Origin: a virus
Taxonomy: Duplodnaviria; Caudoviricetes
Length of the DNA: 59,163 nucleotides
IMG/VR virus record: IMGVR_UViG_3300025030_000113
Span: 1 to 59,163 of that record
Strand: one strand, 5' to 3'
Shown here: positions 9,249 through 54,007 of the stretch, one piece after another
Numbering within the stretch: the first letter of the stretch is position 1
Layout of the letters: the number at the start of each line of letters is the position of its first letter
Notes under the pieces: model-generated
Told to the model about the DNA's origin: nothing
Database searches by the model: none
What the model saw: the letters and a program-made list of their open reading frames with translations, nothing else
Position numbers and translations under genes: made by a program

Positions 9249-9272
9249 GGGGAAATGTTTAAAAAATAAAGG

Positions 9273-9719: not shown

Positions 9720-10095
9720 AAAGTAACAAACAATATCAACAACTTACAGACTTGCAGTTACGACATGAAGCCGTGTAACGGGCCGGTAACGGTCTTTTGC
9801 TTAACAATATCAACGACGTAACGGGATACGATTATAATAAACTCTTCCCAGGAGACGCTTACAGAGATACAAAGGCAAAAAGAGAGACAGGGAGACAGTG
9901 ACGAAAAGAGACATCTCTATATAAATAAATCTATTTTATATTATTATTTATTTTATAGCCGCCCCCTCTCTAGCCCAGCATTGACGCGGGTTTAGGGTGT
10001 AACCGGGTTTGGTCACATATAGTTACATAATCACGTAAGTGCCTAATAAACAATGTAACCGACAGTAGAGGGGGTGCGTCACACCTGTAACAGTG
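9720..10095. other. putative replication origin
   Basis: Non-coding; about nine GTAAC/GTTAC pentamers, ~40-bp AT tract at 9917-9957, IHF consensus TATCAACAACTTA at 9734-9746. Confidence 0.55.
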
Positions 10096-12244: not shown

Positions 12245-12535
12245 ATGGAGCGTCCGCAAACTGCAACAGCTGCGTCTTTGCCGTACAGGTCACAGGAAGA
12301 TGCGGTTCGGTTCTACGAGGATCAACGCCGCGAGTTCCTGGCGCGCTGTGAGCCGTTCGTCAAGGTTATGGTGGAGATCCGCATGATGCAGCCGATGCGG
12401 TACTTCATTGCGGAGGGGCGGCACATCGAGCCTGAAATCCTCTGGATGCCGGGCAGCAAAGAAACCTACGATCTCTGTCAGCAGATGATCGATCACATTA
12501 AGCAGCAGTACCTACCTGGAGGGGAGACAACATGA
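12245..12535 (+). CDS. hypothetical protein
   Basis: RBS GGGAGG; ATGA-coupled to next gene. Confidence 0.6.
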   Translation: MERPQTATAASLPYRSQEDAVRFYEDQRREFLARCEPFVKVMVEIRMMQPMRYFIAEGRHIEPEILWMPGSKETYDLCQQMIDHIKQQYLPGGETT

Positions 12536-12933
12536 GCAACAGCGGAGAGATTGGAGTAGCGGCAGTAGTGGCCGACGTGGCGCAGAACGGATCGGCGGCA
12601 GAACTGGTACAGGACTGGAAGCCGACAATAGCAGCACCCTGCGGTTGCCACCCCGAGGCCGGCTTTGTCTGCGACAGCTGCGCGGCTATGGCAGAGAAGA
12701 ACGTCGCAGAACTGGCAGAGTACGTGAACGACTTCATAACAAAACGCTTTCCTAACGGATTGGAAGGTGATATAAGGCAGATCATTAGCGAGTGCGTACT
12801 TGACGCATTCCACGACGGCGCCAGGTGGGCCGAGGCACAGCCCCCCGGAGACAAAAGCCTGATCATTGGCGTAGACCACGCAGCACCCGGCCACGATAAA
12901 AGCGTAAGCCGGATCATCATCGCACAGAGGTGA
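12532..12933 (+). CDS. hypothetical protein
   Basis: RBS GGAG; PCGCH...CDSC. Confidence 0.55.
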   Translation: MSNSGEIGVAAVVADVAQNGSAAELVQDWKPTIAAPCGCHPEAGFVCDSCAAMAEKNVAELAEYVNDFITKRFPNGLEGDIRQIISECVLDAFHDGARWAEAQPPGDKSLIIGVDHAAPGHDKSVSRIIIAQR

Positions 12934-12935
12934 CC

Positions 12936-13319
12936 ATGAAACGATTCGCCCTTATCGTAGCGGCAGCCTTCGCGGTCGCCACCTTCTCCATCTGCACAGC
13001 AGCCGTTGCCGCCAACTACGTCACGTCGGCTGTGTTCTCCATTGCCAGTTCCGCCAAGACAGCCACCCCGAACCTCAGGGTTGCGCCGATGACGCCCAAG
13101 ACGGCGGCCCGCGACGACAACAGCATGGTGATGCAGTGGTTTCAGTGGCAGGCGAACCAGACGCAGAACCTCTATCTCACCAAAAATACCACCGTCGACC
13201 TTTCCGCTGCGCTGTGCGCCTGGGTTCAGGTCGACCAGGCCACGAAGGTAAAGGTGAACGCCGAGAGCGCGTACATGATCCTGCCGAGCGGGTACAACGA
13301 CGTGGTGTGTTTCAAGTGA
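12936..13319 (+). CDS. predicted secreted protein (Sec signal peptide)
   Basis: MKRFALIVAAAFAVATFSICTAAVAA then beta-rich domain with two Cys. Confidence 0.7.
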   Translation: MKRFALIVAAAFAVATFSICTAAVAANYVTSAVFSIASSAKTATPNLRVAPMTPKTAARDDNSMVMQWFQWQANQTQNLYLTKNTTVDLSAALCAWVQVDQATKVKVNAESAYMILPSGYNDVVCFK

Positions 13320-13426
13320 GCGATAAGGAACCGGCACATAAGCTAGCGCACCTACTCTGGCAGGCCGGGAAGTTCCTGGTGTCTTTGCTGGAGAAGGAGT
13401 ACGGGTTCGGGAAGAAAACGGCATGA
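13316..13426 (+). CDS. small hypothetical protein
   Basis: GTGA and ATGA overlaps at both ends; VSDKEPAHKLAHLLWQAGKFLVSLLEKEYGFGKKTA. Confidence 0.4.
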   Translation: MSDKEPAHKLAHLLWQAGKFLVSLLEKEYGFGKKTA

Positions 13427-13571
13427 GCCACAGCATCGACTACGAAGCGCAGCAGGGGCGGGACCGCGGCGACGACTTCACGGTGAAGAGGGAAGAACTC
13501 ACCCCGCTGTAGGACAAGATGATGGACCTGGCCGCGCTGGCGTACCGGCCGCCAAGGATGAATAACTGATT

Positions 13572-30504: not shown

Positions 30505-33500
30505 ATGGCCGAGTACACCGTCTTCGACAACTCCACCAAAAGGGAAGTTACCTTTGAGTGGAACGATCCCAACCCGCCTACCGATGCCGACATGGAAGAA
30601 GTCTTTGCGGCAGCCTCACAGCAGAATCCCGCAGCACCCAGCAAGAAAATCTTTGGCGAACAAGGCGGGTCCACGATGGGGATCGCCTCCGAGGCCGGCA
30701 AGAAAAGCGCGGCAAGCGGCAAGCGCTTCCTCCAGGACACCGCCGTCGATGCGGTGAAGGGCGTCGTCGGCCTGGGAGAGTCTGTAGTCGGTGGGCTCGA
30801 CCTGGTGACAGGGAACCTTGCCGGCGAGGGACTGGCCGCTGTCGGGTACGACCCGAAGAAAACGGACGAGATTCTGTCCTCAGGGTACAGCGCGGAGCGG
30901 CAGCAGGCCAATGCCAACGTGCAAGGCGCCAAGGGATTCATGGAGACGCTGGGCGCCTTGGTCGACAACCCTTCTGTGGCATTCGGCAGCATCGTTGAAT
31001 CTGCTCCCCTATCGCTCGGCAGCGCGGCGGCGGCCCGCACACTTGCGGTCAGGTTGCTGGCCCGCGCAGGCATCGCCCCCGGAACGGCTGCAGCTACCGA
31101 GTTCTTCGCTAACCCGGCGACGCAGGCAAAGCTACTGGCTGCCGCAGCTGGCACCGAAGGCGCCATGACGGCAGGCAGTATTCAAGAGGGCGGGCGGCAA
31201 GGTGGGCGCGACTACACCGACACCGTGCTGCCGGCACTGGCAGCTGGCGCGGTGACTGGCACCATCAGCGCGGTGACGTCAAAGATCCCCGGGTTCAAGG
31301 ATGCGGAAGTCTCTGCGGCCACCGCTGGAATGGCGGGCGAAGCCGCGGGCGGGATACTGCAGGCGGGCAAAGAGATTGCCAAGAGCATGTTCAAGGAAGG
31401 CGTGCTTGAGGAACTGCCCCAGTCGGCGCAAGAGCAGGTGTTCACGAACCTCGCCATGGGGAAACCTTGGGACGAGGGCGTAGGCGAGGCGGCAGCGCAA
31501 GGCATGGTTGCCGGCATGGGCCAGGGCGGCGGCATGACGGCCGTCTCCGAGACAATGAACCGGAAGGACGCTATCCGCTCCAGGCTCGACAAGATGCGCG
31601 GCAAGACGTCCGTCGTGGTTCCCGACACCGGCGTCAGCGACCCGACCGTATCCGTCGACGACGCAATAGCGGCGGCAGCGGCCGAAGTCTCCGGGGGGTG
31701 GGACAGGGGGAACCGGGACGAACTCCTGAAGAGTCTGGGCGGCGAGGTCGATCCGGTGGCAGAGGCTATCAGCGGGGCCCGCGGCTCGCTCGACGTGGCA
31801 GACCCGGCGCGGGCATTGGCCGACCCGATGTTGCGCGAGATTGAGGGCGCACAGCTGACCGCCGACCCGTTCAAGGATTACCCGCTTACCCGCCCCATCA
31901 TCCAGCCGGGCGCACCGACCGCAGCAGGTGGCGAGATTGTCGGCGTTGAGGGCTACCGGCAGAAAGACGTGATACCGAACCAGCCTATCCTGAACGACGA
32001 GCAGCAGGCCGTGCAGGACACGTTTCTGAAGGGTGGCCCGGCGCTGAACCGCGACGCTATCGACGAGGTGCTGGCAAACCAGAACGACCCGAACCTGGCA
32101 GACGAGATTGCCAAGGGCCGGCAGGAGGCAGAAGCATTGCGGCAGGCTGGGCAGCTGCCTGTCGCAGAACAAACCAACCCGAACGGCGCCGGCCCCTCCC
32201 CGGTGACGAAGGTTGATGCCCCGGCGCAGCCCCTCCCTGCGCCGGGGGCTTTTTCTCCCCCCGCTCCTAAAGTGGAGACCACCCCTGCGGCCAAGATCGA
32301 GACGCCTCTGTCGGCGGTGCAGCAAGAGTTTATCCGCGGGAAGGTGAAGGCGCTCGGCAGCATCGATGCGGTGCAGGCGAAGTACGGAGACCAGGCTGCA
32401 CCGGTGGACCGCTATGCCAGAGATTTCGCAGCGCAGCATTTTGCACCGGCCAAAAAGGTGGCCGAGCAGGCGCCCATCGCGGCCCCTACGACCGGCCCGA
32501 AGATGGTGCGCGGCAGGGCGAACAAGGCGTTCACGGCCAAGGGCGATAAAATCTACAGTTCCTTTGCTGTCGTGGAAGCTGACGACCTGGTAGCGTCTCA
32601 CTCTGCAGACGGCACGCCAAACCCGAAATACCCGCAGGAGATCCAGCCGCGCAACCGGGAGAAGGTATCGAGCCAGCTGCAGATTCAGCAAATGTCGCAG
32701 GCGTTACGGCCGGCGCAGCTGGGGGAGTCGGCAAAGGTCAGCAGCGGATCCCCTTTCATCGGCCCGGACGGCGTGGTGGAGTCCGGGAACGGGCGCACCC
32801 TGGCGATCAGGCAGGCATACGACACCGACAAGGCCGGCGAGTACCGCGCATGGCTGGAGTCCGAAGCCGCCCGGCTTGACGTCAACCCGGCAGAGATCAA
32901 GGGAATGAAGAAGCCGGTGCTGGTCCGTGTGCGTGAAACCGAAGTGGACCGCCCAGCGTTTGCCCGGGAAGCGAACCAGGCAGGCATGGCGGCAATGAGC
33001 CCGGCCGAGCTCGCCAAGTCGGACGCGGCCCGGATCACTCCGGACCACATCGGCAGCCTCAACGTGGGGGATGACGGTAACCTGCTTTCTTCCGGCAACC
33101 GCCCGTTCGTTTCCGCGTTCCTGAAAGGGTTAGGATCGAGCGAAGCGGCAGGGCTCACCGACGCCCAAGGACTGCCCACAAGGCAGCTTGCAGACCGGAT
33201 GCAGGCCGCCATATTCACCAAGGCGTACAACGACCCAAAACTGGTATCCATGATGGCCGAGGAATCGGACGTGGATATCAAGAACATCATCACCGCCCTG
33301 AACGCCGCGGCACCCGCGTTTGTCAGGACCGAGGCGAAGGAGATCGTCGGCAAACTTACCGACGCGATCGGGATGATCAGAGAGGCGAAGCAGCGCGGCC
33401 TTACCCTCGATGACTTCTTGAGTCAGCAGGATATGTTCTCGGGTGGTAGGGATGCCGACGCCGAGACGATCGCCCGCGGCATCGGCGGCATGATGCGCAG

Positions 33501-36500
33501 CGGCAAGAAGATGGCCGAGGCCTTCCGCTCCCTGGCCGACGCGGCCGGCCGCAACAACGATTACGCCTCGCAGGGGAACCTCCTGGGCGACAAGGCAAAG
33601 ACGCCGAGCGAAATCATCAGCGACGTGTTCAAGCAGGCAGGACCTCAGGCACAGCAGCAGCCGCTGCTTAACCAGGAGCCGGAAGCGAAGCAGCCTGCAC
33701 CTAAACCGGACAACGGCAAGAGCAGGATCGAGAACGAGCTTGACGAGCTTTCCGACGACGACGTTGCCAACATGATCAGCAGCGCCATGGCAGCGCCGAC
33801 CGACCGACCGGCCGCCAAGGTCGAGAAGGTGAAGCGCATCAAGGCCGCTGTGGTGGCAGGCAAGAAACCCCGCGGGGCCGCCTCGCTTCTTGCTGACGCA
33901 GCCAAGGAAGCCGGGCAAGGGTTTGCCGACTCGCTCAAGGCTCTTGCCGCATCCTACGGCGTCGACGAAAGCAAGCTTTCCGCCTTTCCTGCCGGGTTTG
34001 ATGCAGACGGCTATGCGAAGGCCAAGCCTCACTTCCTCTCGGCATGGGAGCACTACAAGGCGGCCGGGAAGGGCCTGGTGGAGTTCGTGCAGTACCTGGG
34101 CGACAAGCTTGGGCGCCTGATCCCCGGTTTCGAATCCCAGCTGGGGTACTTCTTTGGGGAAATGCGGGGCAAGCACAGCTTTGAAGCCGACCTTGCAGAG
34201 CAGAGCAAGCCGGCCGGATACCAGTATCCTGACCAGCGGCCGGTGCTCACGGAGGCAGGGCTCAAGGATATCGTGCCGACCGACTACATGGAAAAGGTCG
34301 ACGCCTCCCTGGAGCTGCCGGAAACCTACCGCATCGACACCCCCGAGCGCGAGCAGATGCGCGAAGCCGCTGCTGAAAAGCTTTACGGCGACGGCGCCAA
34401 AAACAAGGACTACCGCGTCGATATCATTCTTGGCCTGGCGGCGTCCGGCAAATCCAGCGTAGCCAACCCAATTGCCAAGGAACACGGCTCGCTGGTTCTC
34501 GATTGCGACGATGCAAAAGAACTGCTCCCCGAGTTCGACAACGGGAACGGCTCCAACGCTGTGCACGAAGAGAGCTCCGACATTTTCGGGCGGGCCTACC
34601 AGCGGGCCCTGTTGGCCGGCGACAACCTGGTGCTCCCCCTGGTCGGCGGTAGCCTCCCCAGCCTGGAGCGGCGCCTGAAAGCTCTTGCCAACGCGGGGTA
34701 TGACGTTCACCTTCACTACGTCGACCTGCCGATGCAGAAGTCGGTGGAGCGGCTGCTGTCCAGGTACAACGAAACCGGGCGCCTGATGGACCCGCGATTA
34801 ATTGTAAACAATGGCTTGCACCCCTTTAAAAATTATAGTATCGTTAAGTCGCAAGGAGGGATCACCAATGAAAGCGACCAAGGTGGACAAGAGAAACGGC
34901 CTGGTGTACGGGTCGGCGGAATGGCAGGAGTGGATTCTGGACAACTCGATGACCAAAGCGGAAGAGGGAGCCGCGGCGGCCAAGGAGAAGCAGACTACCG
35001 CGTAGAGAGCGCGACGTTCTACAACAACGATAAGCCGTTCGGCGCTCCCAACATTATCGTTGAATCCCAAACCAACCCCACACCCAAGCCGGCCAAAGGG
35101 CCAAGAGTTTCCGTGCAGGTATCCGCTGCCGAAGGAGGGAAAGGTGTCTCAGCAGTCAGTGATAAAAAACTTGGGGCTAAAGAGCCGGATGCAGCTGGAC
35201 GAGCTGAAGGGCAAGATTCCGATGAACCTGGGGCTGGAGCTCCTGCAAATGTGGGAAGCGAGCGACCCGCGCAGGTTTCAGAGTCTGCGCCTTCAGGATC
35301 TGGTGATACCGCTATTGGAGCAGCAGACGCTGCTGCTGGAGAAGGCGATAGAGGCGCAGGTGGACAGCCCGCACCTCGTCCTGTACGAAACGCTGCAGAT
35401 GTGCGGGGTCCCTCTCACGTTACAGGAAGCGCTCGGAACTTCACGATCACGAATGAGCTTGAGTTCGGTGGAGTCGGCGCTAAGTCAAAGTTCAAGAACA
35501 ACGTAGAAGCGATCAGGACCCTGCAAACCCTGGAGAGTGAGGCACGCCCGGCAACCCCGGACGAGCAAGCCACTCTTGCCCGCTACGTCGGGTGGGGCGG
35601 ACTGCCTCAGGCGTTCGATGAAAAGAAAAAGGATTGGGCGAAGGAGTACGCCGAGCTCAAGGCCTTGCTCACCCCCGAGCAGTACGAAACCGCAGTATCC
35701 TCCACACAGAACGCGCATTACACCGCGGCCGAAGTTGTCAAAGGGATTTGGGCGGGCGTGCAGCGCCTCGGCTTCGACCGCGGCAGCGTGCTGGAGCCGT
35801 CCATGGGCACCGGTAACTTTTTCGGCCTGATGCCCCGCGAGCTGCGCTCCATGTCGAAGATGACCGGCGTGGAGTTCGACCACATCACCGGCATGATTGC
35901 AAAGCACCTGTACCCGCAGGCCCGCGTGCATGCCCCCCTTGGATTCCAGGACCTGCAGATTGTCCCGGAAAGCTTTGACCTCGCCATAGGTAACCCGCCG
36001 TTCGGTGCCAAGCCGGTATTCGACCCCAACAGCAAAACCCTTTCCAAGTTCAAGATTCACGGCTACTTCTTTGCCAAGTCGGTTGACTCGCTGCGCCCTG
36101 GCGGCGTGCTGGCCATGGTTGTCTCCAAGGGGTTCCTCGACGCCAACGATGCGACCGGCAAGCAGCAGCGCGACTATGTGGCGGCCCGGGCGAAGTTGCT
36201 GGGCGCGATCCGCTTGCCGGATACCGCGTTCTCTGTCAACGCAGGGACGGAAGTAACCACCGATATCGTGTTTCTGCAAAAGCTCGCACCGGGGGAGCAG
36301 GGGAACTCGGCAGAGTGGAGCGAAATGGGAGCGGTTCAGGACCCGGCCACCGGCGCCGATATCCAGATCAACAAGTATTTCGTGTCGAACCCGGACATGA
36401 TGCTGGGCGAAATGGCGCTGAGAGGGGGCGCATGGCGAGCAGGTGGCGCTATCTTGGCGGCCCGCGCCGGCGAGGACCTGGGCGAGAAGCTGCAAGCCGC

Positions 36501-39500
36501 GATCGAGAAGCTGCCGAAGAACGTCATGGCCAGCGGGAAGCGCACCACTCAGGACCTGAACAACGCGGCGGCGGCCAGCCTCAAGAACGTAGACAGCGTT
36601 CGCCCCTTCAACTTCTTCATGGAGAACGGCAAGCTTTACCAGCGCATGCCCGACATGAACGGCGACACGCAGGCCCGCCAGCTGGATCACATCGGGACGA
36701 CCGCCGACCGCATTGCCGGCATGGTCGAGTTGCGCGACGCGGTGCGCAAGCAGCTGGCCCTGGAAGCGAACGAGAAAAGCTCGGATATGGCGATCGACCA
36801 TAACCGGAAGGTGCTGAACACCCTTTACGACGCCTACGTGAAACGGTACGGCAACCTGAACAACGACACCAACAAGCGCCTGTTTTGGGACGATGCCGAC
36901 TCCCCCCTGGTGCGCTCCCTGGAAAAGAGCTTTGATAAGGGACTGAGCAAGGACCTGGCGAAGAAGCAGGGCAAGGAGGCAAGGGAGGCCAGCGCCAAGA
37001 AGGCCGATATTTTCACTAAGCGCGTGCTCTCGCCGGCCATGGAAGTCACCAAGGTGGAGAGCGCCCCCGATGCCCTATCTGCTTCGATGAACGAGAAGGG
37101 CCGCGTCGACTTCCCCTACATGGAAGCGATATACGGCAAGGACGCCGAGCAGATCACCAAGGAGCTTGGGGAATCCGTTTACGAGGACCCCAGCGCAGGC
37201 TGGCTCCCGGCAAGCGAATACCTTTCCGGGAACGTGAAGGCGAAGCTGGCAGAGGCGATCAACGCGGCCAAGTCGGACCCGAAGTACGGCCGCAACGTGG
37301 AAGCGCTCGACGCGGTGCAGCCTGAGGACGTCCCGGCCGCTGATATCTTTGTCGCTCCCCATGCCTTTTGGGTTCCGGAGGAAGTCTACCACCAGTTCGC
37401 AGCGGAGGTGCTGCAAGGCACCATGGCGGGCGGATACTCCCGCGCTACCCACAGCTGGAACGTGCGCTTTACCAGCAGCGACAACACGCTGAACACGGCA
37501 AAGCTCGGGACCGGCCGCATGTCGGCTACCACGATCATGAGCACCCTGATGGCGAACAAGCAGATTGCCGTCTACGACCCGAACCCGCAGAAGGACGGCG
37601 CCCGCATCCTGAACGCCAGCGAGACGGCCGCCGCGCAGGGGAAGGCCGACGAACTGACCGAGCTTTTCCAGGATTGGATCTGGAAGGACCAGGCCCGGCG
37701 CCAGAAGGTAGTCAGGAAGTACAACGACCTGATGAACACGACGGTGGACGCTCGGCACGACGGTTCCCACATGACGTTCCCGGGCATGTCTCCCACCTTC
37801 CAGTTCAGGCCGCACCAGAAAAACGCGGTGTACCGCTCGGTGCAAACCGGCGTCGCGCTCTACGATCACGTTGTCGGCGCAGGCAAGACAGCCGTTATCA
37901 CCGCAACAGCGATGGAGCTACGCAGGCTGGGCCTGGCTAAAAAACCGATGGTCACCGTGCCGAACCACCTGGTAGAGCAATGGGCGGCAGCGTTCGCCAA
38001 AATCTACCCGCAGGCCAAGGTGCTTGCCGCGACGAAAAAGGACTTCAAGAAAGAGAACCGGCGCCAGTTGTTTGCCAAGATTGCCACCGGCGATTGGGAT
38101 GCCGTTATCATCGCCCACTCGTCGTTCAAGTTTATCCCGGTTCCGCCTGCTATTCAGATGGAGATACTTGACGAGCAGAAGGCCGAGATTCTACAGGCGC
38201 TGCGGGAGGCAAAGGAGGACGCCGGCAAGAAGCTTTCCGTGAAGAAGCTGCAGGAGGCAAAGGACAGGATCGAGGCGAAGATTCAGGCCCTGGCCGATAT
38301 GCCGAAGGACGACCTGCTGAACTTCGAAGAAATGGGGATCGATGCCCTGTTTACCGACGAGGCCCACGAATTCAAAAACCTTTTCTACACCACGACCATG
38401 CAGAACGTCGCGGGCCTGGGCGACCCTACCGGCAGCGGGCGGGCGTTCGACATGTTCATCAAGACTCAGTACCTGATGCGCAGAAACGGCGGCAAAGGGG
38501 TCTATTTCGCCACAGGGACGCCGATCAGTAATAGCCTGGCAGAAGTGTTCCACATGCAGCGGTTCCTCCAGTACGGCGAGCTCAAGGCGCGAGGCCTGGC
38601 AAACTTCGACGCATGGGCCTCTGCGTTTGGCCTGGCAACGTCGGATTGGGAGCAGGACGCTGGCGGGCGCTACAAGCAGAAAACCCGCTTCCGCAAACTG
38701 GTGAACCTCCCGGAGCTCAAGCAGCTGTGGCGCCAGGTCACCGACACCATCACCAACCCGGACCTGATCAGGGACGCGGAGCAGCAGGGCAAGACGTTCC
38801 CCCTGCCAAAGATTGAGGGCGGAAAGCCTCAGAACGTGGTGGTTGAGCGCTCCCCCCAGCAGGCGGAATACATCGGCATCCCCCGGGAGAAAACCGACGA
38901 CGATGGTAACGTGATCGTGAATACCGAGAACGGCATGCCGGTCGTTGAGTACGATCCCGGCACCATCGTTTACCGCATGGAGCACTGGCTTGACGAGAAG
39001 AAGAAAGGCAACACGCGGGAAATGCCCCTGGTCATCACCGGCGACGCTCGCAAGGCGGGCCTCGACTTCCGGCTGATTGACGAGAACTCCCCGGACTTCG
39101 CGGGCTCCAAGACGAACACGGCTGTGAACGAGATCCACGAAATCTGGAAGGAGAACGATCACCGCAAGGGCACGCAGCTGGTATTCATCGACCTGTCGAC
39201 CCCGAAGGCACACAAGGGGCAGAACCTGGCGAAGATGGCAGAGACTGTGCCGACCTACTTTGTCAAGGACCGGGGCACCATTCAGCACGTTGCCGGCAAG
39301 CCGGTTAAGCTCGACGCCATTCAGGCCGAGTGGGAGTTTTTCTCTTTCAAGAAGGGCAAGAGCGTCAGGGTGTACGAGCGCATGTCAGGCCTGGAGATTG
39401 GCGAGGGTGCCAACGTCACCGAAGCCAAGGCGAACGCGACGGAGAAGCTTGCGAGAATCCCCGTACACGTCATGGAACAGCGCTTCCGCGACCAGGCCAT

Positions 39501-42500
39501 ACCCGACGAGCAGATAGAAAGCTACCTGATCGATTGGGAAGAAGCGCAGGCCAGCAAGGAAGATGACGGAGACGATGACGGCGCCGAGAAGGGACCGGAG
39601 ATTTCTTTTGACGACCTGCTGGCAGATTCCGGGAAGTCTGATTTCTCCGTCTACGATGACATTAAGACCAAACTGATCGAGAAGGGGGTCCCCGCCGACC
39701 AGATAGCCTATATCCACGACGCCAACACCGACGCGCAGAAGCATGACCTGTTCGCCAAGGTGAACTCGGGCGTGATCCGTGTCCTGCTGGGCTCCACCGC
39801 CAAGATGGGCGCCGGCACCAACGTGCAGAAGAAGCTGGTAGGCCTGCACCACCTTGACGCACCGTGGAAACCGAGCGACCTGGCGCAGCGTGAGGGCCGC
39901 ATTGTACGGCAGGGCAACGAATTCTATTACGAGGATCCCGAAGGTTTCCGCGTGAAGATCAGGCGCTACGCCACCAAGCAGACCTACGACTCTCGCATGT
40001 GGGAAATCATCGAGACGAAGGCCAAGAGCATCGAGCTGTTCAAGACGGGCGGCAAGGAGCTGCGCGAGATCGAGGACGTCTCCAGTGAGAGCGCCAACGC
40101 GGCCGAGATAAAGGCGAGCGCGGCCGGTAACCCGCTGATGCTTGAAGATTTGCAGATGAAAAACGAGATCCGCAAGTACGAGGGCATGGAGAAATCCTGG
40201 AAGCGTTCGCGCTACGACCTGGAGGACAAGGTTCACTCCGTCGAGGCGAAAAGCGCCTACCCCTACAAGCGCCTCGCTGATTTGGAGAAGGCGCAGAGGG
40301 GGCTGCAGCCGAAGAACGCCGACGCGCTCGGGCTCAAGCTGGGAAGGGTGGAGTACAACGAGAAGGAGGATTACAACCCTGAGGAAATGTTCAGGGTGAT
40401 CAGCCGGGCCTTCACGACGTCGATGCGCGACACCCGCCCGGTTGAAGTCGGCACGTACCGCGGGACCGATATTCAGGTAAGTTCCGGCCTGACGCAAAGC
40501 GTGCGCGTCGAGCTCATGTCCAACGGCGTGCGCATCGGCCTGACCGAATACACCCTGGAGGATAAATTCTCGGCGCCCGGTTTCATCACCAGGCTCGACA
40601 ACGTGGTCGACAACGTGGCGAACGATATTCGCGGGGCGAAGTCGAGCATTGCCCAGCTGGAGAAGGACGCCGCGGGCGCCCGGGAGGAACTGAAGCAACC
40701 GTTCAAGCATGCCGAGAAGCTGAAGGAGTTGCGGGACCAGCATAAGCGGGTAGTGTCTGCGCTACGCCAGGGACGGACCAGCGTTGAGGCTGCGCCGGTA
40801 GATGCTGAGACTCGATTCTCTTTGAATCAAACCAGCACCCCCGCCTTCAAGAAATGGTTCGGAGACTCCAAGGTAGTGGATGCCGAGGGTAAGCCGCTGG
40901 TGGTTTACCACGGCACACCTACAGGCGGCTTTACTGAGTTCAGCAAGGATTACCGGGGCCGCACAGGGGGGAGGTCGCGTGGTGGGTTTTCCTTCGCAAC
41001 AAACCGTGAAGCTGCCGAAGGTTACGCCAATGCTTACAATGATGAAACGGTAATTTTGGACGATGCTATACGCAAAGCCAACTCTGCACTCAGGATGCTT
41101 TCAGACACTCAGATGGAAGACATGGGGCTGGCCCCGGAAACCGAATTTTATTGGGGTGCCGTGGATGACACGGACGAGTTTTTATCCTACTTGGGGGAGT
41201 TGGCTGACAGTGCAAAGGCTTTCAACCCTGAAGCGGCAAGGATTTTAAAAGACGCTGCGGAGACAAGCAGAGAAGGCGACCCCGAAGTATATGAGGCATA
41301 CCTGAAAGTCCCTGCCAATGCCCCTGAATTTTACGCTACGCCTGAAACACTTGGCAAGGTTGTCGCAAGCTTGGACGTCCGAAACGTGCCGGGGGGTGCT
41401 GCGGTAGTCAACATGCCCAACGGAGAGAAGGTTTTCTACGTCTCTGATCCGACGCAGATCAAATCCGCCACCGGCAACAACGGAGAGTTCAACCCCGACA
41501 ACCCGGATATCCGCTTCAACCGGGACCAGACGGCCCAAGGCGCCGACGCAGCCGAGGTTCGAAACACTCTGACCTACTTCACCGCCAACATGGACAACGC
41601 GCCGGCCTGGGAAGTGGTGCAGGCTGAATCCGAACTGCCCGCAGCGGTCCAAGACGAAATCAACAGCCTCGACGCTTCCGGCGCTGTGCGGGGTGTATTC
41701 ACAGCTGGCAAGATTTACATCGTAGCCGACAACCTGAACGCGGCCGACGAGGCGGAAGCGGTGTTCCTGCACGAATCGGTAGCACACTACGGCCTGCGCG
41801 GCCTGCTCGGCGCTAGGTTCAAACCGGTGCTGCAGCAGATCGCCATGGTCTACGGCAACAAGGGGCTCAAGGATATCGCAGCACGCTACGGCCTGAACCT
41901 CTCCAAGCCTGAGGACCGGATGACGGCCGCCGAAGAAAAGCTTGCAGAAATGGCAGAGACGGCCGACCGTGTGGGCATCGTGAAGCGGGCCATTGCTGCG
42001 GTGCGTGATTGGCTGCGGCAGCACGGTTTCAAGGTGGAGTGGAGCGATAGCGATATCAAGGCGCTGCTGGCCCGGGCGCGGGGGTATGTGGAGCGGAGCA
42101 ATTCGCAGGCCACCACGCTGTTCGACGGTGACCGGTTTATGATTGCGGGCCCGGATGGCCGCGCCGACCTCCCCACCGAGACAAAGGTGCAGGCAGGCTG
42201 GCGCAAGTTCCAGGACAAGTACAACCGGGTCGACGTGCTGCAGCGCTGGCTGAAAGAACAGGGCGTGCGCCTCTCCGACCTGGCGAACGCTTCTCGCGGG
42301 CTCTACACCATGAACGGGAAAATTGCGGACCAGCTCTCGAGGTTCATGGACAACGACATTCAGCCGCTGGTGCAGGCGGCAGCAAAGGCGAAGGTGAGCC
42401 TTGACGATATCTCCGACTACCTCCTGATGCAGCACGCGGAGGAAGCAAACGAGCAGATGCGGAAACTGCACGATGACCCGGCCGCGCTGGCGTTTGGCGT

Positions 42501-44946
42501 CACCGATGCGGAAGCCGCGCAGGCGCTAGCCGACTACCAGGCCCGCCCGGACTTCACGGAGTTCAAAGCGCTGGCCGACCAGTTTCAGGCGTTCAGCGGG
42601 CAGACTGCGGATCTTCTGGAGGGCAACGGCGTAATCTCCTCCGAAATGCGAGCGGCATGGGACGGGGCTTACAAGAAGTACGTTCCGCTCCGGGGCGGTG
42701 AGGATGACACCAAGACAGGAACCGGCAAGGGCCTGCGCGTGAACGGGAAGCAGCAGCGCCGTAGCGGGCACGGCAGGCGCGACGAGCATGTGATCGAGAA
42801 CATCATCAAAGCGCGGGAACGGGCTATCAAGACGGTGGAGAAAAACAACGTCGCGCTCTCGATCGCGCAGCTGATCCACGAAGCGGCCGACGACCGGATC
42901 GGCACGATTGGAAAACCGGAGAAGCGCCGGGTGTTCAAGAGCGTGAAGCAGTACACTGTGCTGTTCCAGGGGGCGCCCGTCGCGGCCTTCACCAACGAGG
43001 CCGACGCTGATGCCTTCGTCGCTAAAGACCGCCTGGCAAACGGCAAGCCGCTCAGTGACTACATGCTGAACGTGTCGAGCGACCCCACCGTGAACTGGAT
43101 GACAAGCCCCATGCTGGGCGACAACGAGATCAACGCCTACATCAACGGTCACCAGGTCCGGATCCAGATCAACGACGAGGTGGCGGCCGGCGCCCTTACC
43201 AACCTGGGGGCCGAAGGACTCGGGACCATCCTCTCTATCGGCAAGCAGATCAACAACTATTTCAGCCGGGCCTACACCGGGTACGATCCGCGCTTCACGA
43301 TCCGCAACACGTTCAGGGACTTCACCGCAGGCATGGTGAACCTGACCGGCGACTACGGCGCGGCGACCGCGGCAAAGATCGCGGCGAACTACCCGAAGGC
43401 TATTCGGGAGTTCATCAAGGCCCGCAAGGACCCGGCCCTCTCGACATGGGTGGACCGGTACAGGAAGCAGGGCGGTTCCACCGGGGCCAGCTGGCTATCT
43501 TCCCTGGAGCGCCTGGGCGAAGACGTTGAAGCAATCTATCAGGAGCAGATCGGGAGCGTCGCCACGTACCGTAACGTGTTTGCGGCAGAGAAGGCAAAGG
43601 GCCGCTCCAACATGGCAGCAAGGGTCAAGGCGCTGGGCCGCTCGGGTGTGGCAGGGTTCCACAAGGTCCCGGTGATGGGCCACTTCCTGAAGCTGATCAA
43701 CGCCATGAACACCGTTTCCGAGAACGCTTTCCGCGTCTCCACCTTCATGACGCTGGTGCAGGAAGGCAAGAGCGAAGCGGAGGCAGGCGAGGCCGCCAAG
43801 AACAGCACCATCAACTTCGACAAGCGCGGCGAGCTCGGGGCACAGATGGGGGCGCTCTGGCTGTTCTTCAACCCAGCGATGCAGGGGGTACAACGCTCCT
43901 TCTTTGCGCTCACGCAGAGCGAGCACAAGCTGCAAGCGCAGGCGCTTGTCGGCTCCATGGCGCTGGCCGGGTTCATGGCGGCCGAGCTCGCCCGGGGCAT
44001 GGGCGGCGATGATGATGACGAGTGGGACAAGATCCCCCGCAGTGTGAAGAACAGGAACTTCGTGATCAGGACCGGGGAGAAAACGCAGATCACCATTCCG
44101 CTCCCTTACGAGTACGGGTCTTTCGTCGGCATCGGATACGCCATGAACGACGCGGTGCACGGCCGGTTCGACAAGCGGGCCGGCCTCAACCTGGCAAGCG
44201 CAATCATGGACGGCCTGGCGCCCCTTGGGAACCCCGTAAGCGACGAGGGGGATATCCAGCCCTTGGCAATGATGCCGACCGTTGCAAAGCTCGTCCTGGC
44301 GCCCAAGACGAACACCAACAGTTTTGGCAGCAGGATCGCCCCCGAGAAGTTCCAGGAATCGAAGCCCGACAGCCAGAACATGTGGCGCGGCACCAAGGGG
44401 AGCGTTTACGATAGGGTTGCCACCGGCATGAACGAGGCGACAGGCGGCAGCGAGTACAGCGCCGGGATGGTGGACGTCTCCCCGGAAATCCTGAAGTACT
44501 ATACCCGCACGCTGCTCGGGGGGGCGTTCACGTTCGTCGACCAGGTTGTAGGACTTGGTATCGTCGGCGCGAACGGAGCTCAACCTGACCTGGCAGAGAT
44601 CCCGATGGGAAGCGTGCTGGTCCGGGAGAACACGGTGCGCGATACTCGGCGCATGTTCTGGGATATCGCCAAGGATGCCAAGACGGCTATCGACGGATTC
44701 AACGCAGCAAAGAAGAACAGGGACGTCGAGGCCGCCAGGGATATCAGGCAGGACAAGGCGGATCTGCTGGCAGTCGCTGGCCTCGCCGCCCGCCAGGCAA
44801 AGCTTGCCAAGGCGAAGCGCGATGCTGTCGACGCTATCAGGCTCGATGACTCCCTGAGTTTCAGCGCGAAGCGGGCCATGACTAAAGAGCTTGAGGCGCA
44901 GGAGTCAAAGATTTACGACAGACTGATAGAGCGCTTCAATCAGTAA
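30505..44946 (+). CDS. giant polyvalent DarB-like virion protein (ParB/DdrB-like, zeta-toxin-like kinase, N6 methyltransferase, SNF2 helicase, ADP-ribosyltransferase-like, zincin-like, LPD38-like)
   Basis: QPRNR/VESGNGR (~32500-33300); GLAASGKS, D.D..K, VHEES (~34250-35070); NAHYT, LEPSMGTG, IGNPPF (~35440-36500); VGAGKT, DEAH, ATGTPISNS, QREGRIVRQGN (~37800-40100); KWFGDSKVV..YHGT..QIKSATGN.G.F (~40820-41520); HESVAHYG (~41770); INFDKRG..LWLFFN, IPLPYEYG (~43800-44600). Confidence 0.9.
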   Translation: MAEYTVFDNSTKREVTFEWNDPNPPTDADMEEVFAAASQQNPAAPSKKIFGEQGGSTMGIASEAGKKSAASGKRFLQDTAVDAVKGVVGLGESVVGGLDLVTGNLAGEGLAAVGYDPKKTDEILSSGYSAERQQANANVQGAKGFMETLGALVDNPSVAFGSIVESAPLSLGSAAAARTLAVRLLARAGIAPGTAAATEFFANPATQAKLLAAAAGTEGAMTAGSIQEGGRQGGRDYTDTVLPALAAGAVTGTISAVTSKIPGFKDAEVSAATAGMAGEAAGGILQAGKEIAKSMFKEGVLEELPQSAQEQVFTNLAMGKPWDEGVGEAAAQGMVAGMGQGGGMTAVSETMNRKDAIRSRLDKMRGKTSVVVPDTGVSDPTVSVDDAIAAAAAEVSGGWDRGNRDELLKSLGGEVDPVAEAISGARGSLDVADPARALADPMLREIEGAQLTADPFKDYPLTRPIIQPGAPTAAGGEIVGVEGYRQKDVIPNQPILNDEQQAVQDTFLKGGPALNRDAIDEVLANQNDPNLADEIAKGRQEAEALRQAGQLPVAEQTNPNGAGPSPVTKVDAPAQPLPAPGAFSPPAPKVETTPAAKIETPLSAVQQEFIRGKVKALGSIDAVQAKYGDQAAPVDRYARDFAAQHFAPAKKVAEQAPIAAPTTGPKMVRGRANKAFTAKGDKIYSSFAVVEADDLVASHSADGTPNPKYPQEIQPRNREKVSSQLQIQQMSQALRPAQLGESAKVSSGSPFIGPDGVVESGNGRTLAIRQAYDTDKAGEYRAWLESEAARLDVNPAEIKGMKKPVLVRVRETEVDRPAFAREANQAGMAAMSPAELAKSDAARITPDHIGSLNVGDDGNLLSSGNRPFVSAFLKGLGSSEAAGLTDAQGLPTRQLADRMQAAIFTKAYNDPKLVSMMAEESDVDIKNIITALNAAAPAFVRTEAKEIVGKLTDAIGMIREAKQRGLTLDDFLSQQDMFSGGRDADAETIARGIGGMMRSGKKMAEAFRSLADAAGRNNDYASQGNLLGDKAKTPSEIISDVFKQAGPQAQQQPLLNQEPEAKQPAPKPDNGKSRIENELDELSDDDVANMISSAMAAPTDRPAAKVEKVKRIKAAVVAGKKPRGAASLLADAAKEAGQGFADSLKALAASYGVDESKLSAFPAGFDADGYAKAKPHFLSAWEHYKAAGKGLVEFVQYLGDKLGRLIPGFESQLGYFFGEMRGKHSFEADLAEQSKPAGYQYPDQRPVLTEAGLKDIVPTDYMEKVDASLELPETYRIDTPEREQMREAAAEKLYGDGAKNKDYRVDIILGLAASGKSSVANPIAKEHGSLVLDCDDAKELLPEFDNGNGSNAVHEESSDIFGRAYQRALLAGDNLVLPLVGGSLPSLERRLKALANAGYDVHLHYVDLPMQKSVERLLSRYNETGRLMDPRLIVNNGLHPFKNYSIVKSQGGITNESDQGGQEKRPGVRVGGMAGVDSGQLDDQSGRGSRGGQGEADYRVESATFYNNDKPFGAPNIIVESQTNPTPKPAKGPRVSVQVSAAEGGKGVSAVSDKKLGAKEPDAAGRAEGQDSDEPGAGAPANVGSERPAQVSESAPSGSGDTAIGAADAAAGEGDRGAGGQPAPRPVRNAADVRGPSHVTGSARNFTITNELEFGGVGAKSKFKNNVEAIRTLQTLESEARPATPDEQATLARYVGWGGLPQAFDEKKKDWAKEYAELKALLTPEQYETAVSSTQNAHYTAAEVVKGIWAGVQRLGFDRGSVLEPSMGTGNFFGLMPRELRSMSKMTGVEFDHITGMIAKHLYPQARVHAPLGFQDLQIVPESFDLAIGNPPFGAKPVFDPNSKTLSKFKIHGYFFAKSVDSLRPGGVLAMVVSKGFLDANDATGKQQRDYVAARAKLLGAIRLPDTAFSVNAGTEVTTDIVFLQKLAPGEQGNSAEWSEMGAVQDPATGADIQINKYFVSNPDMMLGEMALRGGAWRAGGAILAARAGEDLGEKLQAAIEKLPKNVMASGKRTTQDLNNAAAASLKNVDSVRPFNFFMENGKLYQRMPDMNGDTQARQLDHIGTTADRIAGMVELRDAVRKQLALEANEKSSDMAIDHNRKVLNTLYDAYVKRYGNLNNDTNKRLFWDDADSPLVRSLEKSFDKGLSKDLAKKQGKEAREASAKKADIFTKRVLSPAMEVTKVESAPDALSASMNEKGRVDFPYMEAIYGKDAEQITKELGESVYEDPSAGWLPASEYLSGNVKAKLAEAINAAKSDPKYGRNVEALDAVQPEDVPAADIFVAPHAFWVPEEVYHQFAAEVLQGTMAGGYSRATHSWNVRFTSSDNTLNTAKLGTGRMSATTIMSTLMANKQIAVYDPNPQKDGARILNASETAAAQGKADELTELFQDWIWKDQARRQKVVRKYNDLMNTTVDARHDGSHMTFPGMSPTFQFRPHQKNAVYRSVQTGVALYDHVVGAGKTAVITATAMELRRLGLAKKPMVTVPNHLVEQWAAAFAKIYPQAKVLAATKKDFKKENRRQLFAKIATGDWDAVIIAHSSFKFIPVPPAIQMEILDEQKAEILQALREAKEDAGKKLSVKKLQEAKDRIEAKIQALADMPKDDLLNFEEMGIDALFTDEAHEFKNLFYTTTMQNVAGLGDPTGSGRAFDMFIKTQYLMRRNGGKGVYFATGTPISNSLAEVFHMQRFLQYGELKARGLANFDAWASAFGLATSDWEQDAGGRYKQKTRFRKLVNLPELKQLWRQVTDTITNPDLIRDAEQQGKTFPLPKIEGGKPQNVVVERSPQQAEYIGIPREKTDDDGNVIVNTENGMPVVEYDPGTIVYRMEHWLDEKKKGNTREMPLVITGDARKAGLDFRLIDENSPDFAGSKTNTAVNEIHEIWKENDHRKGTQLVFIDLSTPKAHKGQNLAKMAETVPTYFVKDRGTIQHVAGKPVKLDAIQAEWEFFSFKKGKSVRVYERMSGLEIGEGANVTEAKANATEKLARIPVHVMEQRFRDQAIPDEQIESYLIDWEEAQASKEDDGDDDGAEKGPEISFDDLLADSGKSDFSVYDDIKTKLIEKGVPADQIAYIHDANTDAQKHDLFAKVNSGVIRVLLGSTAKMGAGTNVQKKLVGLHHLDAPWKPSDLAQREGRIVRQGNEFYYEDPEGFRVKIRRYATKQTYDSRMWEIIETKAKSIELFKTGGKELREIEDVSSESANAAEIKASAAGNPLMLEDLQMKNEIRKYEGMEKSWKRSRYDLEDKVHSVEAKSAYPYKRLADLEKAQRGLQPKNADALGLKLGRVEYNEKEDYNPEEMFRVISRAFTTSMRDTRPVEVGTYRGTDIQVSSGLTQSVRVELMSNGVRIGLTEYTLEDKFSAPGFITRLDNVVDNVANDIRGAKSSIAQLEKDAAGAREELKQPFKHAEKLKELRDQHKRVVSALRQGRTSVEAAPVDAETRFSLNQTSTPAFKKWFGDSKVVDAEGKPLVVYHGTPTGGFTEFSKDYRGRTGGRSRGGFSFATNREAAEGYANAYNDETVILDDAIRKANSALRMLSDTQMEDMGLAPETEFYWGAVDDTDEFLSYLGELADSAKAFNPEAARILKDAAETSREGDPEVYEAYLKVPANAPEFYATPETLGKVVASLDVRNVPGGAAVVNMPNGEKVFYVSDPTQIKSATGNNGEFNPDNPDIRFNRDQTAQGADAAEVRNTLTYFTANMDNAPAWEVVQAESELPAAVQDEINSLDASGAVRGVFTAGKIYIVADNLNAADEAEAVFLHESVAHYGLRGLLGARFKPVLQQIAMVYGNKGLKDIAARYGLNLSKPEDRMTAAEEKLAEMAETADRVGIVKRAIAAVRDWLRQHGFKVEWSDSDIKALLARARGYVERSNSQATTLFDGDRFMIAGPDGRADLPTETKVQAGWRKFQDKYNRVDVLQRWLKEQGVRLSDLANASRGLYTMNGKIADQLSRFMDNDIQPLVQAAAKAKVSLDDISDYLLMQHAEEANEQMRKLHDDPAALAFGVTDAEAAQALADYQARPDFTEFKALADQFQAFSGQTADLLEGNGVISSEMRAAWDGAYKKYVPLRGGEDDTKTGTGKGLRVNGKQQRRSGHGRRDEHVIENIIKARERAIKTVEKNNVALSIAQLIHEAADDRIGTIGKPEKRRVFKSVKQYTVLFQGAPVAAFTNEADADAFVAKDRLANGKPLSDYMLNVSSDPTVNWMTSPMLGDNEINAYINGHQVRIQINDEVAAGALTNLGAEGLGTILSIGKQINNYFSRAYTGYDPRFTIRNTFRDFTAGMVNLTGDYGAATAAKIAANYPKAIREFIKARKDPALSTWVDRYRKQGGSTGASWLSSLERLGEDVEAIYQEQIGSVATYRNVFAAEKAKGRSNMAARVKALGRSGVAGFHKVPVMGHFLKLINAMNTVSENAFRVSTFMTLVQEGKSEAEAGEAAKNSTINFDKRGELGAQMGALWLFFNPAMQGVQRSFFALTQSEHKLQAQALVGSMALAGFMAAELARGMGGDDDDEWDKIPRSVKNRNFVIRTGEKTQITIPLPYEYGSFVGIGYAMNDAVHGRFDKRAGLNLASAIMDGLAPLGNPVSDEGDIQPLAMMPTVAKLVLAPKTNTNSFGSRIAPEKFQESKPDSQNMWRGTKGSVYDRVATGMNEATGGSEYSAGMVDVSPEILKYYTRTLLGGAFTFVDQVVGLGIVGANGAQPDLAEIPMGSVLVRENTVRDTRRMFWDIAKDAKTAIDGFNAAKKNRDVEAARDIRQDKADLLAVAGLAARQAKLAKAKRDAVDAIRLDDSLSFSAKRAMTKELEAQESKIYDRLIERFNQ
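34816..34844 (+). promoter_or_regulatory. internal sigma70-type promoter within giant gene
   Basis: TTGCAC-17 bp-TATCGT in an AT-rich patch of an otherwise GC-rich ORF. Confidence 0.55.
34868..35005 (+). CDS. nested out-of-frame gene 1 (45 aa), candidate antitoxin of the zeta-like domain
   Basis: AAGGAGG at 34853-34859 then ATG; MKATKVDKRNGLVYGSAEWQEWILDNSMTKAEEGAAAAKEKQTTA. Confidence 0.6.
   Translation: MKATKVDKRNGLVYGSAEWQEWILDNSMTKAEEGAAAAKEKQTTA
35144..35506 (+). CDS. nested out-of-frame gene 2 (120 aa), helical, loosely TnpV-like
   Basis: AAGGAGG at 35132-35138 then GTG; globular Leu/Glu-rich sequence while the giant frame is low complexity. Confidence 0.6.
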   Translation: MSQQSVIKNLGLKSRMQLDELKGKIPMNLGLELLQMWEASDPRRFQSLRLQDLVIPLLEQQTLLLEKAIEAQVDSPHLVLYETLQMCGVPLTLQEALGTSRSRMSLSSVESALSQSSRTT

Positions 44947-52877: not shown

Positions 52878-52911
52878 GTGGCCCCTCGTAATTCATTGCA
52901 TCAAATTTCTG

Positions 52912-54007
52912 CTAAAATTCCGTGTGCAAGTTCAACCACTGCAGGTACTTGTCCATTGCCAATGGCTTTAAGTCGGTCCACCCTAAAGGCCACCCCATTA
53001 GCCACTCTACCCACGTCGGGTTCAACTGCCCACCATTGGCCGGATCGTACTGAGCTTCTTTTTTTCCTGCCTGTCTTGATTGCCCTGAGTGCCTGGGCAT
53101 TTCCATCGTGCCCATATCCTGCATGCTGGCTCTCGGCGTCGGCCAGCGCACTACTTCCGTTGCAAGCCCGTTCCCACTGTGCCGCTTGCCGCTGCGGTTC
53201 TCCATCCTGGCGAGGTCGGCCCCCTTGTGGTCCGATACCTTGGGTGAAGGCCACATGGCTATTACCGTCGCCAGACTCAACCCGGTTGCGCTCCTGTCCA
53301 TCTTGGCAAAGTCCGGTCCAGCTGCGGAAGCCTTGGGTGTAGGCCAAAGGCGCGGAGTCTTCACCATCTGGCTGAGTGATTGCCCCGTCATGTTCTCCGT
53401 TATTGTCCCGCCCCTGCCCCCGTCCGATGCGGCAGGCGTCGCCCATAGTTTCGTCCAGCTCGTCAACGTGTCCGGACTCCCTCGATGCGCCCCGCAACTC
53501 TGAGAATCCTCCGCTCTTGGCGTGGGCACAAATCCAGATGCGCTCCCTCTTGTGAGGTGCGCCGGAATGGTAAGCGCCCAACACTCCCCATTCCGCATCG
53601 TACCCCATTTCGGCCAAGTCTCCGAGAACACGTCCGAGCCCCCGAGAAGTGAGAATTGGGCTATTCTCCACGAAGACGTGGGCAGGTCGTACTTCGCCAA
53701 TGATGCGGGCCATTTCACGCCATAGGCCTGATTTCTCGCCATCAATGCCAGCCCCCCCCCCCGGCTGCACTGATATCCTGGCAAGGGAAACCTCCCGAAA
53801 CCACGTCAACAATTCCTCGCCATGGTCGGCCGTCAAAAGTCGTGATGTCGGACCAAATTGGGAAAACTTGGAGAATGCCATCGTTTTGTCGTTGCGCCAA
53901 AACAGCTGCGGCGTAGGCATCACGTTCAACTGCGCAGACGATTCTTCTGTTAAGAAGTTCGCTTCCGAGTATGCCTCCACCAGCGCCTGCGAAAAGAGCC
54001 AACTCAT
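52912..54007 (-). pseudogene. overlapping-frame methyltransferase beta chain (TRD-like repeats plus motif IX), frameshifted at the same G11
   Basis: ATG 54007 overlaps upstream stop (ATGA); five (W)PTP-like repeats and LNPTWVEWLMGWP; fully open if tract is G10. Confidence 0.7.
53752..53762 (-). repeat. G11 homopolymer tract
   Basis: 11 C on the plus strand; longest homopolymer noticed in the window. Confidence 0.95.

Follow-up and report, generated by a model that had tools for sequence, protein, structure and literature searches.

The window analysed here is the complete virus record IMGVR_UViG_3300025030_000113 (Caudoviricetes), 59,163 bases in length. Downstream of portal, major-head and other long open reading frames (ORFs) of the + strand it carries a giant ORF, and within this lie two small ORFs of the +1 frame, ORF1 and ORF2, which are the subject of the present analysis (Table 1). 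Both are situated wholly inside the giant ORF, the frame of which stays open across them. Nine Pfam families were recognized in the giant product, including ddrB-ParB, Zeta_toxin, Eco57I methylase, ResIII/SNF2/Helicase_C, ART-PolyVal and LPD38. Because this set brings together several conflict-related domains in a single polypeptide of the virion- or transfer-associated kind, the product is a polyvalent protein in the sense in which Iyer et al. 2017 (PMC5512222) introduce the term, and its combination of LPD38, ART-PolyVal, ddrB-ParB, zeta-like kinase and methylase-helicase makes it a typical member of the class described there. The nested-gene sequence does not stem from faulty assembly. The same stretch is present in a run of another study, with no differing letters or indels listed; its displayed pieces span 34468-34836 and 35076-35584, and 14 more pieces are undisplayed.

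Table 1. Positions in the window of the embedded genes and of the features around them
Feature	Position	Strand	Details
Giant polyvalent virion-protein gene, host frame	30505..44946	+	4813 aa; ORF list, translation, Pfam
Zeta-toxin-like P-loop kinase core (predicted)	34417..34797	+	residues 1305-1431; Pfam Zeta_toxin, E 8.4e-12
AT-rich patch over conserved zeta codons	34786..34859	+	holds -35/-10-like motif; ends in the Shine-Dalgarno (SD) sequence AAGGAGG
Insertion in giant frame, G/D/R/Q-rich loop	34855..35001	+	49 codons, residues 1451-1499; alignment A6
ORF1, nested gene in +1 frame (putative)	34868..35005	+	45 aa; ATG start; stop TAG 35003-35005
Zeta-domain tail, giant frame (VESATFYNNDKPFGAPNIIVESQ)	35002..35070	+	aligned to SYAEWKSNDVAFGEKPKEIWNS of P0015/P0016 (alignment E 1e-81); A6
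ORF2 SD site AAGGAGG	35132..35138	+	5 nt ahead of GTG at 35144
ORF2, nested gene in +1 frame (putative)	35144..35506	+	120 aa; GTG start; linker between zeta-like and methylase modules
DNA-methylase module start, giant frame (NFTITNELEFGG...YVGWGG)	35446..35600	+	collinear with P0015, P0016, P0009

The region of the giant protein that accommodates ORF1 is a predicted zeta-type kinase domain. Its Pfam match spans profile positions 18-157 of 199 (140 positions) and lies above the curated cut-off, and the Walker A motif GLAASGKSS is retained. We found 16 polyvalent proteins sharing this domain, 12 of which show 40-51% identity to that of the phage. In most of the 16, the last helix (GLKPKQNYDKIK...) leads directly to a conserved tail, VDSYEAWSNDV.RG..P, with nothing between them. 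In the phage, 49 residues rich in G, D, R and Q separate IVKSQ from VESATFYNNDKPFGAP, and the phage tail ESATFYNNDKPFG pairs with the conserved tail SYAEWKSNDVAFG of relatives, both in BLAST comparisons with the proteins P0015 and P0016 and in alignment A6. In the latter, which includes seven related loci, residues 1451-1499 form a variable loop that is wholly absent from locus L018. An insertion of about 45 residues in a loop near the end of the zeta domain, after which the giant frame resumes globular sequence, had been proposed in a first-pass annotation made from the sequence alone, and both the low-complexity interval and the resumption are borne out by translation and alignments. P0015 and P0016 are collinear with the giant protein through kinase core, loop, tail, low-complexity linker and methylase module (E 7e-81 and 4e-64), and this domain architecture is old.

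A direct repeat of 16 nt with 81% identity was noticed around the same place, at 34839-34854 (TATCGTTAAGTCGCAA) and 35055-35070 (TATCGTTGAATCCCAA), encoding SIVKSQ and IIVESQ, respectively. The pair brackets a segment of 216 nt with ORF1 and the tail. We considered these as flanking repeats and rejected them, about one match of this kind in 900 nt being expected by chance according to a rough estimate.

Codon usage indicates that the coding frame changes at the loop and again at the linker. It was scored by a codon log-likelihood table derived solely from the phage's other genes and applied to windows of 45 codons. Over ORF1, the +1 frame scored +14.1 and the giant frame -5.9. Elsewhere in the giant ORF, real frames had a mean score of 12.5 (standard deviation 3.9), and +1 frames a mean of -16.7 (standard deviation 6.3) with a maximum of 0.9. 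The window starts at which the +1 frame outscored the giant frame formed just two clusters, 34786-34900 (interrupted by one gap) and 35068-35347; the +1 scores there were 6.5-14.1. Followed along the DNA, coding signal passes to the +1 frame at about 34852 and to the giant frame at about 34957-35000, which is then preferred throughout the tail region up to about 35090; a second +1 interval opens at about 35092, and from about 35392 onward the signal is back in the giant frame. GC content at third codon positions (GC3) behaves in the same way. Over 34868-35002 it is 0.82 in the +1 frame versus 0.44 in the giant frame, genes of the phage having about 0.75-0.78, and over ORF2 the giant-frame value drops to 0.24-0.38. 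In the remaining low-complexity linkers of the giant protein, GC3 stays near 0.7 and no frame switch was seen; the switch at the loop and linker is therefore not a general property of linkers. ORF1 and ORF2 share a frame, and the possibility that they represent one gene with a read-through TAG was also considered. It was rejected, as the 46 intervening codons are coding-like in the giant frame and not in the +1 frame.

Both ORFs are preceded by start signals of their own. The SD sequence of ORF1, AAGGAGG at 34853-34859, lies 8 nt ahead of its ATG, and the SD AAGGAGGG is common to both nested genes, so that at the sequence level each possesses a ribosome-binding site and a start codon (ATG in ORF1, GTG in ORF2). 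The initiation region of ORF1 has a minimum free energy of -8.3 kcal/mol and belongs to the least structured 4.3% of the giant ORF's 60-nt windows; that of ORF2 is among the 12% least structured. The ORF1 start is preceded by the AT-rich patch, the sole stretch of the giant ORF with a 60-nt GC content of 0.37 or less (15 of 14,383 windows; minimum 0.33 at 34795). Genome-wide, 1.0% of 60-nt windows are as AT-rich, many of them near the ends of long ORFs. In the patch, conserved kinase residues are specified by synonymous codons ending in A or T, and giant-frame GC3 is 0.40-0.49 compared to a mean of 0.78. Encoding of this kind suggests that selection acts on the nucleotides themselves, to keep the start region open or to maintain a promoter.

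The patch contains the promoter-like motif TTGCAC (34816-34821), a 17-nt spacer and TATCGT (34839-34844). A promoter scan of the region yielded 4 promoter-like sites versus 2.9 expected by chance. An internal promoter would not be needed for ORF1, and the motif is a possible candidate only. On the opposite strand, the same patch holds a better promoter-like site, TTTAAA-18-TACAAT at 34830-34801 (-), with 9 of 12 matching positions. All the individual sequence features on which the first-pass annotation had built its gene (the motif, AAGGAGG, the ATG at 34868 opening a peptide of 45 aa within the giant ORF, and the AT-rich patch) were found where it had placed them.

We then compared the two sites among related polyvalent loci, which were fetched from viral contigs with a stretch of P0015 and two alignments. 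Nine distinct contigs had a zeta-like domain. Seven of these (L005, L006, L007, L008, L009, L013 and L017) carry a loop insertion, and in every one of the seven a protein-like +1 ORF with an ATG extends across it. The ATG lies 2-4 codons past the preceding +1-frame stop in the six loci checked, and the loop genes have 61-84 aa versus 45 aa in ORF1. A second +1 ORF follows the tail in six of the seven, the exception being L017, where another module follows. The codon test preferred the +1 frame at the loop or linker in all seven, strongly in five and weakly in L013 and L017, while the insertion-free loci L018 and L019 gave 0 off-frame windows. In a codon alignment of five loci, the third position of the giant frame is the most variable almost everywhere except in the loop and linker; there it is the first position of the giant frame, i.e. 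the third of the +1 frame.

Substitutions point in the same direction. For the linker gene, all six pairs of relatives show 70-83% identity and a ratio of nonsynonymous to synonymous substitution rates (dN/dS) of 0.13-0.37 in the +1 frame, versus 43-66% identity and dN/dS of 1.8-5.5 in the giant frame. For the loop gene, dN/dS was 0.14 in the +1 frame versus 1.43 in the giant frame between L006 and L009, and 0.20 versus 1.60 between L007 and L009. From these ORFs, codon tests and substitution patterns, the nested +1 genes at the loop and linker sites of the relatives are real. The conservation of the +1 frame that had been proposed as a check is seen in the counterparts in relatives, which are under purifying selection; for ORF1 itself, no homologue of which was found in a relative, the signal is that of codon usage. 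Together with native codon usage, a strong SD and an unstructured start, the selected +1 genes of relatives agree with the earlier suggestion that ORF1 looks like a separately initiated gene.

The occupants of both sites differ considerably. By eye, two types of loop gene (A and B) can be distinguished in relatives in addition to ORF1, and the linker houses a 47-aa type, a 73-aa type (in L009) or, in the phage, ORF2. Loci L005 and L006 share 59% identity over the aligned region, yet their loop genes are different. A motif, LP..L..LL..W, had led us to suspect homology of the occupants by eye; two profile comparisons detected none, either between the type B loop ORFs and ORF1 or between these ORFs and the ORF2 family, type A being judged by eye only. 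The occupants of the loop and linker are thus seemingly unrelated between lineages. When 10 nested ORFs of the relatives were compared with Pfam, only sub-threshold matches were obtained, none of them to a homing nuclease apart from one to LAGLIDADG_WhiA at chance level (E 0.16).

Further off-frame signals were noticed in these contigs. L006 (2-448) and L009 (143-367) contain a third nested +1 ORF (MNRIE.A..W..SL.A.Q...), situated in another low-complexity linker at some distance upstream of the zeta-like domain. It is kept between the two loci and has a +1 codon signal. More off-frame islands occur in L005 (901-961), L009 (1531-1591) and L016 (451-751).

For ORF2, homologues outside polyvalent genes could be found. 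A HMMER search of 1.84 billion representative proteins returned six of them at E <= 1e-3, all free-standing small proteins of 92-142 aa. The best match, P0022, was obtained with E 7.5e-19 and 49% identity, residues 2-100 of ORF2 being aligned with residues 2-102 of a 104-aa protein. ORF2 carries the 4 invariant and 9 near-invariant columns listed for this family (compared by eye), and by homology and conserved residues it belongs to an unnamed family of hypothetical proteins. Since free-standing homologues exist, the ORF2 frame represents a real gene. Its modelled product (mean predicted local distance difference test score, pLDDT, 81) has a confident helical fold over residues 1-100 and a disordered tail (101-120), and its final ~20 codons overlap the methylase module. 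A fold search against PDB and a viral structure library gave no match (best E about 3), Pfam none up to E 1, and PHROGs one weak match of unknown function (E 0.0045). ORF2 and the linker ORF of the relatives were absent from the phage records searched, ORF2 was also unmatched in plasmids, and it was not found as a predicted protein in the protein collection searched.

One ORF2 homologue is a hypothetical protein of Geotalea sp. SG265; a homologue was detected in 1 of 239 genomes of the order to which this genome belongs. Another, a 60%-identical copy, is present in L003, a metagenome contig, in a similar element adjoining a multihaem cytochrome gene. In both loci that could be read, the homologue stands alone as an ORF, and its element also has a tyrosine integrase, which the Geotalea ORF adjoins, and a Toprim/DUF3987 primase. 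No zeta kinase was present among the tested neighbouring ORFs of the free-standing homologues. The elements with ORF2 homologues, integrase and primase (L002:4259-11608 and L003:1609-10660) have a satellite-like look. The cytochrome next to the L003 element has 1,422 aa; this setting hints at a Geobacter-like host of the phage. The ORF of the homologue in L003 extends to 233 aa.

The same contig sheds light on the origin of the linker. In L003, the frame matching the giant frame of the phage has no stop over 85 codons, and its translation, ...GAADAAAGEGGG...PRPTRNPADIRPPSHLTGSAR, closely resembles the phage linker. Because of this likeness, the low-complexity linker is an out-of-frame reading, shifted by one base, of a GC3-rich small gene of the ORF2 type. 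Reading through such genes is easy: among the phage's real genes, 34% of stretches of 46 codons and 8.5% of those of 121 codons lack stops in the giant-type frame.

Taking these data together, we consider it likely that ORF1 and ORF2 are two small +1-frame protein genes embedded in the giant gene and lodged as accessory cargo in its tolerant segments. ORF1 would fill a variable loop immediately ahead of the final strands in the zeta-kinase-like domain, and ORF2 the flexible linker from this domain to the DNA-methylase module. Ribosomes would start independently at the SD and start codon of each gene. The long late mRNA could serve for this, and so, possibly, could a shorter mRNA begun in the AT-rich patch. 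The giant frame would read through both genes and turn them into a Gly/Ala/Asp/Glu/Arg/Pro-rich, probably disordered filler; it would meet few stops because its first position falls on the GC-rich third position of the nested genes, and the filler would be tolerated because it is located in a loop and a linker. The small genes would have entered the two segments as accessory cargo. ORF2 probably existed before its entry, because it has free-standing relatives, and is probably shared with satellite-like integrative elements of Geobacter-like hosts. That the phage translates ORF1 and ORF2 is inferred, as are their direction of origin and any function they may have. Our leading guess for their role is host takeover, counter-defence or exclusion rather than immunity specific to the zeta domain.

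Several observations weigh against this interpretation. No homologues of ORF1 were found in Pfam (up to E 1), in PHROGs, by a word-index protein search, by tblastn against phage records or in a protein atlas, searches that did not include a sensitive HMMER search of the whole library as was made for ORF2; likewise, ORF1 showed no similarity to polyvalent homologues, to other frames of the genome or to the neighbours of free-standing ORF2 homologues. The codon signal records how the DNA evolved, not ongoing translation, and a silent recent insertion would look alike. Between distant loop genes, the two frames are alike in dN/dS (0.61 in the +1 versus 0.75 in the giant frame for L006-L007, 0.82 versus 0.76 for L006-L017), and the type A loop-gene pair is saturated. 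The promoter-like motif matches 7 of 12 consensus positions and was not called by the scan. When a profile of the tail alone was used, the phage tail remained unmatched at E < 100, and the fold model of the zeta domain is poor (mean pLDDT 52, below 50 from residue 138 on), so that the values of 24-33 over the inserted residues 1451-1499 are those of a domain poorly modelled as a whole; because of these two failures, the placement of the insertion within the domain rests on the long alignments and codon usage. Finally, no fold or family match indicates a function for the nested products, and the cargo role is a guess.

Small phage genes embedded in larger ones are well known. Rz1 of lambda is wholly embedded in the +1 frame of Rz, with which it acts as a partner, and phiX174 has nested genes as well; in these cases the proteins of both frames function. 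Like them, ORF1 and ORF2 are small genes with their own starts, entirely within a larger phage gene and in another frame. Unlike in Rz/Rz1, the host frame would be mere filler over the overlap, and a partnership of the small proteins with the giant one is conjectural. Pairs of a toxin and its antitoxin such as epsilon/zeta and PezA/PezT, in which the toxin is a zeta-type P-loop kinase, share with the present locus the physical tie of a small gene to such a kinase domain. They differ in that the small gene seems to sit here near the 3' end of the domain and not upstream, and in that it resembles no family in Pfam or PHROGs. As far as its published description goes, the described case that comes nearest is ShiLan, an insertion in the DNA-methylase genes of actinophages, which hides an HNH endonuclease in another frame (Arsenault, Gosselin and Gogarten 2025, PMC11855218). 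There, too, the insertion lies in a conserved phage gene, has no stops when read in the host frame, specifies a separate protein in a different frame and is predicted to loop out of the host protein. In contrast to ShiLan as described, our nested genes are smaller, have no nuclease domain and give no sign of homing, and they occupy two neighbouring tolerant sites of a polyvalent virion protein, the occupants of which are seemingly unrelated in relatives. In accounts of viral overprinting (reviewed in PMC8227390 and PMC3494269), two frames are open, one compositionally old and the other new. Contrary to the usual course outlined there, in which a new small frame arises in an old gene, ORF2 would be the older frame, given its free-standing homologues and native codon usage, and the giant linker its secondary reading. 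As for polyvalent proteins, PMC5512222 puts forward a weakening of the cell wall by the zeta-like kinase during DNA entry; its main text does not contain the words 'overlapping' or 'frameshift', uses 'nested' of a hairpin only and describes no hidden genes in linkers. A literature search for polyvalent proteins with overlapping, embedded, nested or out-of-frame genes gave no paper with the term 'polyvalent protein' among the best 10 of 475 matches.

Alternative explanations have to be weighed against the cargo interpretation. It is unlikely that the 147-nt insertion is silent, i.e. a piece of a former gene or a recent insertion tolerated as a loop, with ORF1 not translated now or ever. ORF1 is short compared to the loop genes of relatives (61-84 aa) and has no homologue, and a codon signal outlasts function for a long time, especially as the giant frame need only stay open. 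However, ORF1 is intact and has a full AAGGAGG at ideal spacing; directly upstream of it is the patch of the 14.4-kb ORF that is richest in AT, weakly structured and built from AT-ending synonymous codons; and its positional counterparts in relatives are under selection. Built-in immunity, which the first-pass annotation had favoured, is in our opinion rather unlikely. ORF1, perhaps with ORF2, would bind and silence the zeta-like kinase in the producing cell or lysogen, and being encoded where the domain is translated would favour immediate binding. Zeta and PezT kinases have small antitoxins that neutralise them, and polymorphic toxins come with diverse immunity genes located directly behind the toxin domain. 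The zeta-like domain keeps its Walker A motif and a Zeta_toxin match (E 8.4e-12), and a loop occupant is found within it in the phage and in 7 of 7 insertion-bearing relatives, a persistent association. Nevertheless, ORF1 matches no Pfam or PHROGs family, antitoxins included, and the loop occupants look unrelated even where the kinase domains are conserved, as in the 59% identical L005 and L006. Insertion-free zeta-like domains exist in L018, L019 and most protein homologues, and L006 and L009 have a further conserved +1 ORF with codon signal in a linker that lies upstream of the zeta domain. Canonical antitoxin genes sit upstream of the toxin gene; no antitoxin of a known family directly upstream of the toxin was seen here, ORF1 and ORF2 lying inside or after the 3' part of the domain. 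The seemingly unrelated occupants, together with the lack of a zeta kinase among the tested neighbours of free-standing ORF2 homologues, are the reason why we favour cargo over an antitoxin.

In a broader variant, which we regard as doubtful, the hidden +1 genes would be neutralising or escort proteins of polyvalent virion proteins, placed at the toxic domains they serve. Translated from the shared mRNA, ORF1 would appear a few codons behind the exit of the kinase core from the ribosome and would bind the core co-translationally, keeping the kinase harmless until the giant protein is packaged, a toxin-immunity pair in a single reading frame. The loop and linker would then be conserved 'sockets', the partners of which are swapped among phages and satellite-like elements. 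Selfish homing of the ShiLan type, in which a mobile element leaves the host frame intact and is propagated by a nuclease hidden in another frame, is very improbable. The layout corresponds to that reported for ShiLan (a stop-free host frame, a start a few bases into the insertion and a stop at its very end), and the presence, absence and replacement of occupants among relatives resembles the pattern of a mobile element. Against it, neither ORF1, ORF2 nor the 10 nested ORFs of relatives contain a nuclease or any other domain at Pfam thresholds, ORF2 is all-helical and without a fold match, and no significant flanking repeats were found, the sole candidate being the 16-nt pair of 81% identity, at about the level of chance. 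With its 45 aa, ORF1 would also be too small for any homing endonuclease known to us. Even less credible, and largely refuted, is that we are dealing with a chance ORF, with a compositional artefact of low-complexity sequence, or with an alternative C-terminus produced by ribosomal frameshifting. GC-rich genomes are indeed rich in long off-frame ORFs, and the promoter-like motif is no better than chance; but no other linker of the giant protein shows a frame switch, ORF2 has homologues at E 7.5e-19, and substitutions in relatives follow the +1 frame. As for frameshifting, the ATG of the relatives stands 2-4 codons past the preceding +1 stop, which leaves no room for a shift site.

Some other regions of the window deserve mention. 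In the ART-PolyVal region of the giant ORF (40900-41440), GC3 falls to 0.44-0.58 without a frame switch, and this might be a module of later acquisition. The genome is richest in AT at 9200-10072 (60-nt GC as low as 0.17), a stretch that looks like a large intergenic control or origin region. In two long ORFs used as controls, 12498-13436 (-) and 52901-54007 (-), an off-frame outscores the ORF's own frame over much of its length, and these may not be true genes there. At the DNA level, the sole match of this phage among phage records was a 161-nt methylase stretch, plasmids gave none, and no close relative of the phage was found among viral contigs queried with a giant-frame segment or ORF2.

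Giant polyvalent genes are reported as single ORFs by gene callers, which leaves small genes in their loops and linkers uncounted. In the phage, two such genes occupy fixed places beside a toxin-like domain. Both places are also occupied in six of the related viral loci, and the loop alone in a seventh; the genes are under selection where this could be measured, and they differ between lineages. This suggests that tolerant segments of weapon-like polyvalent proteins serve as landing sites for small accessory genes. Such sites would hold an overlooked reservoir of phage proteins, which may act in host takeover, counter-defence or self-protection. The locus also offers a clean natural example of a large protein whose linker would be the secondary reading of an older small gene, and it provides a testable handle on how phages manage toxic ejected domains made inside their own host.

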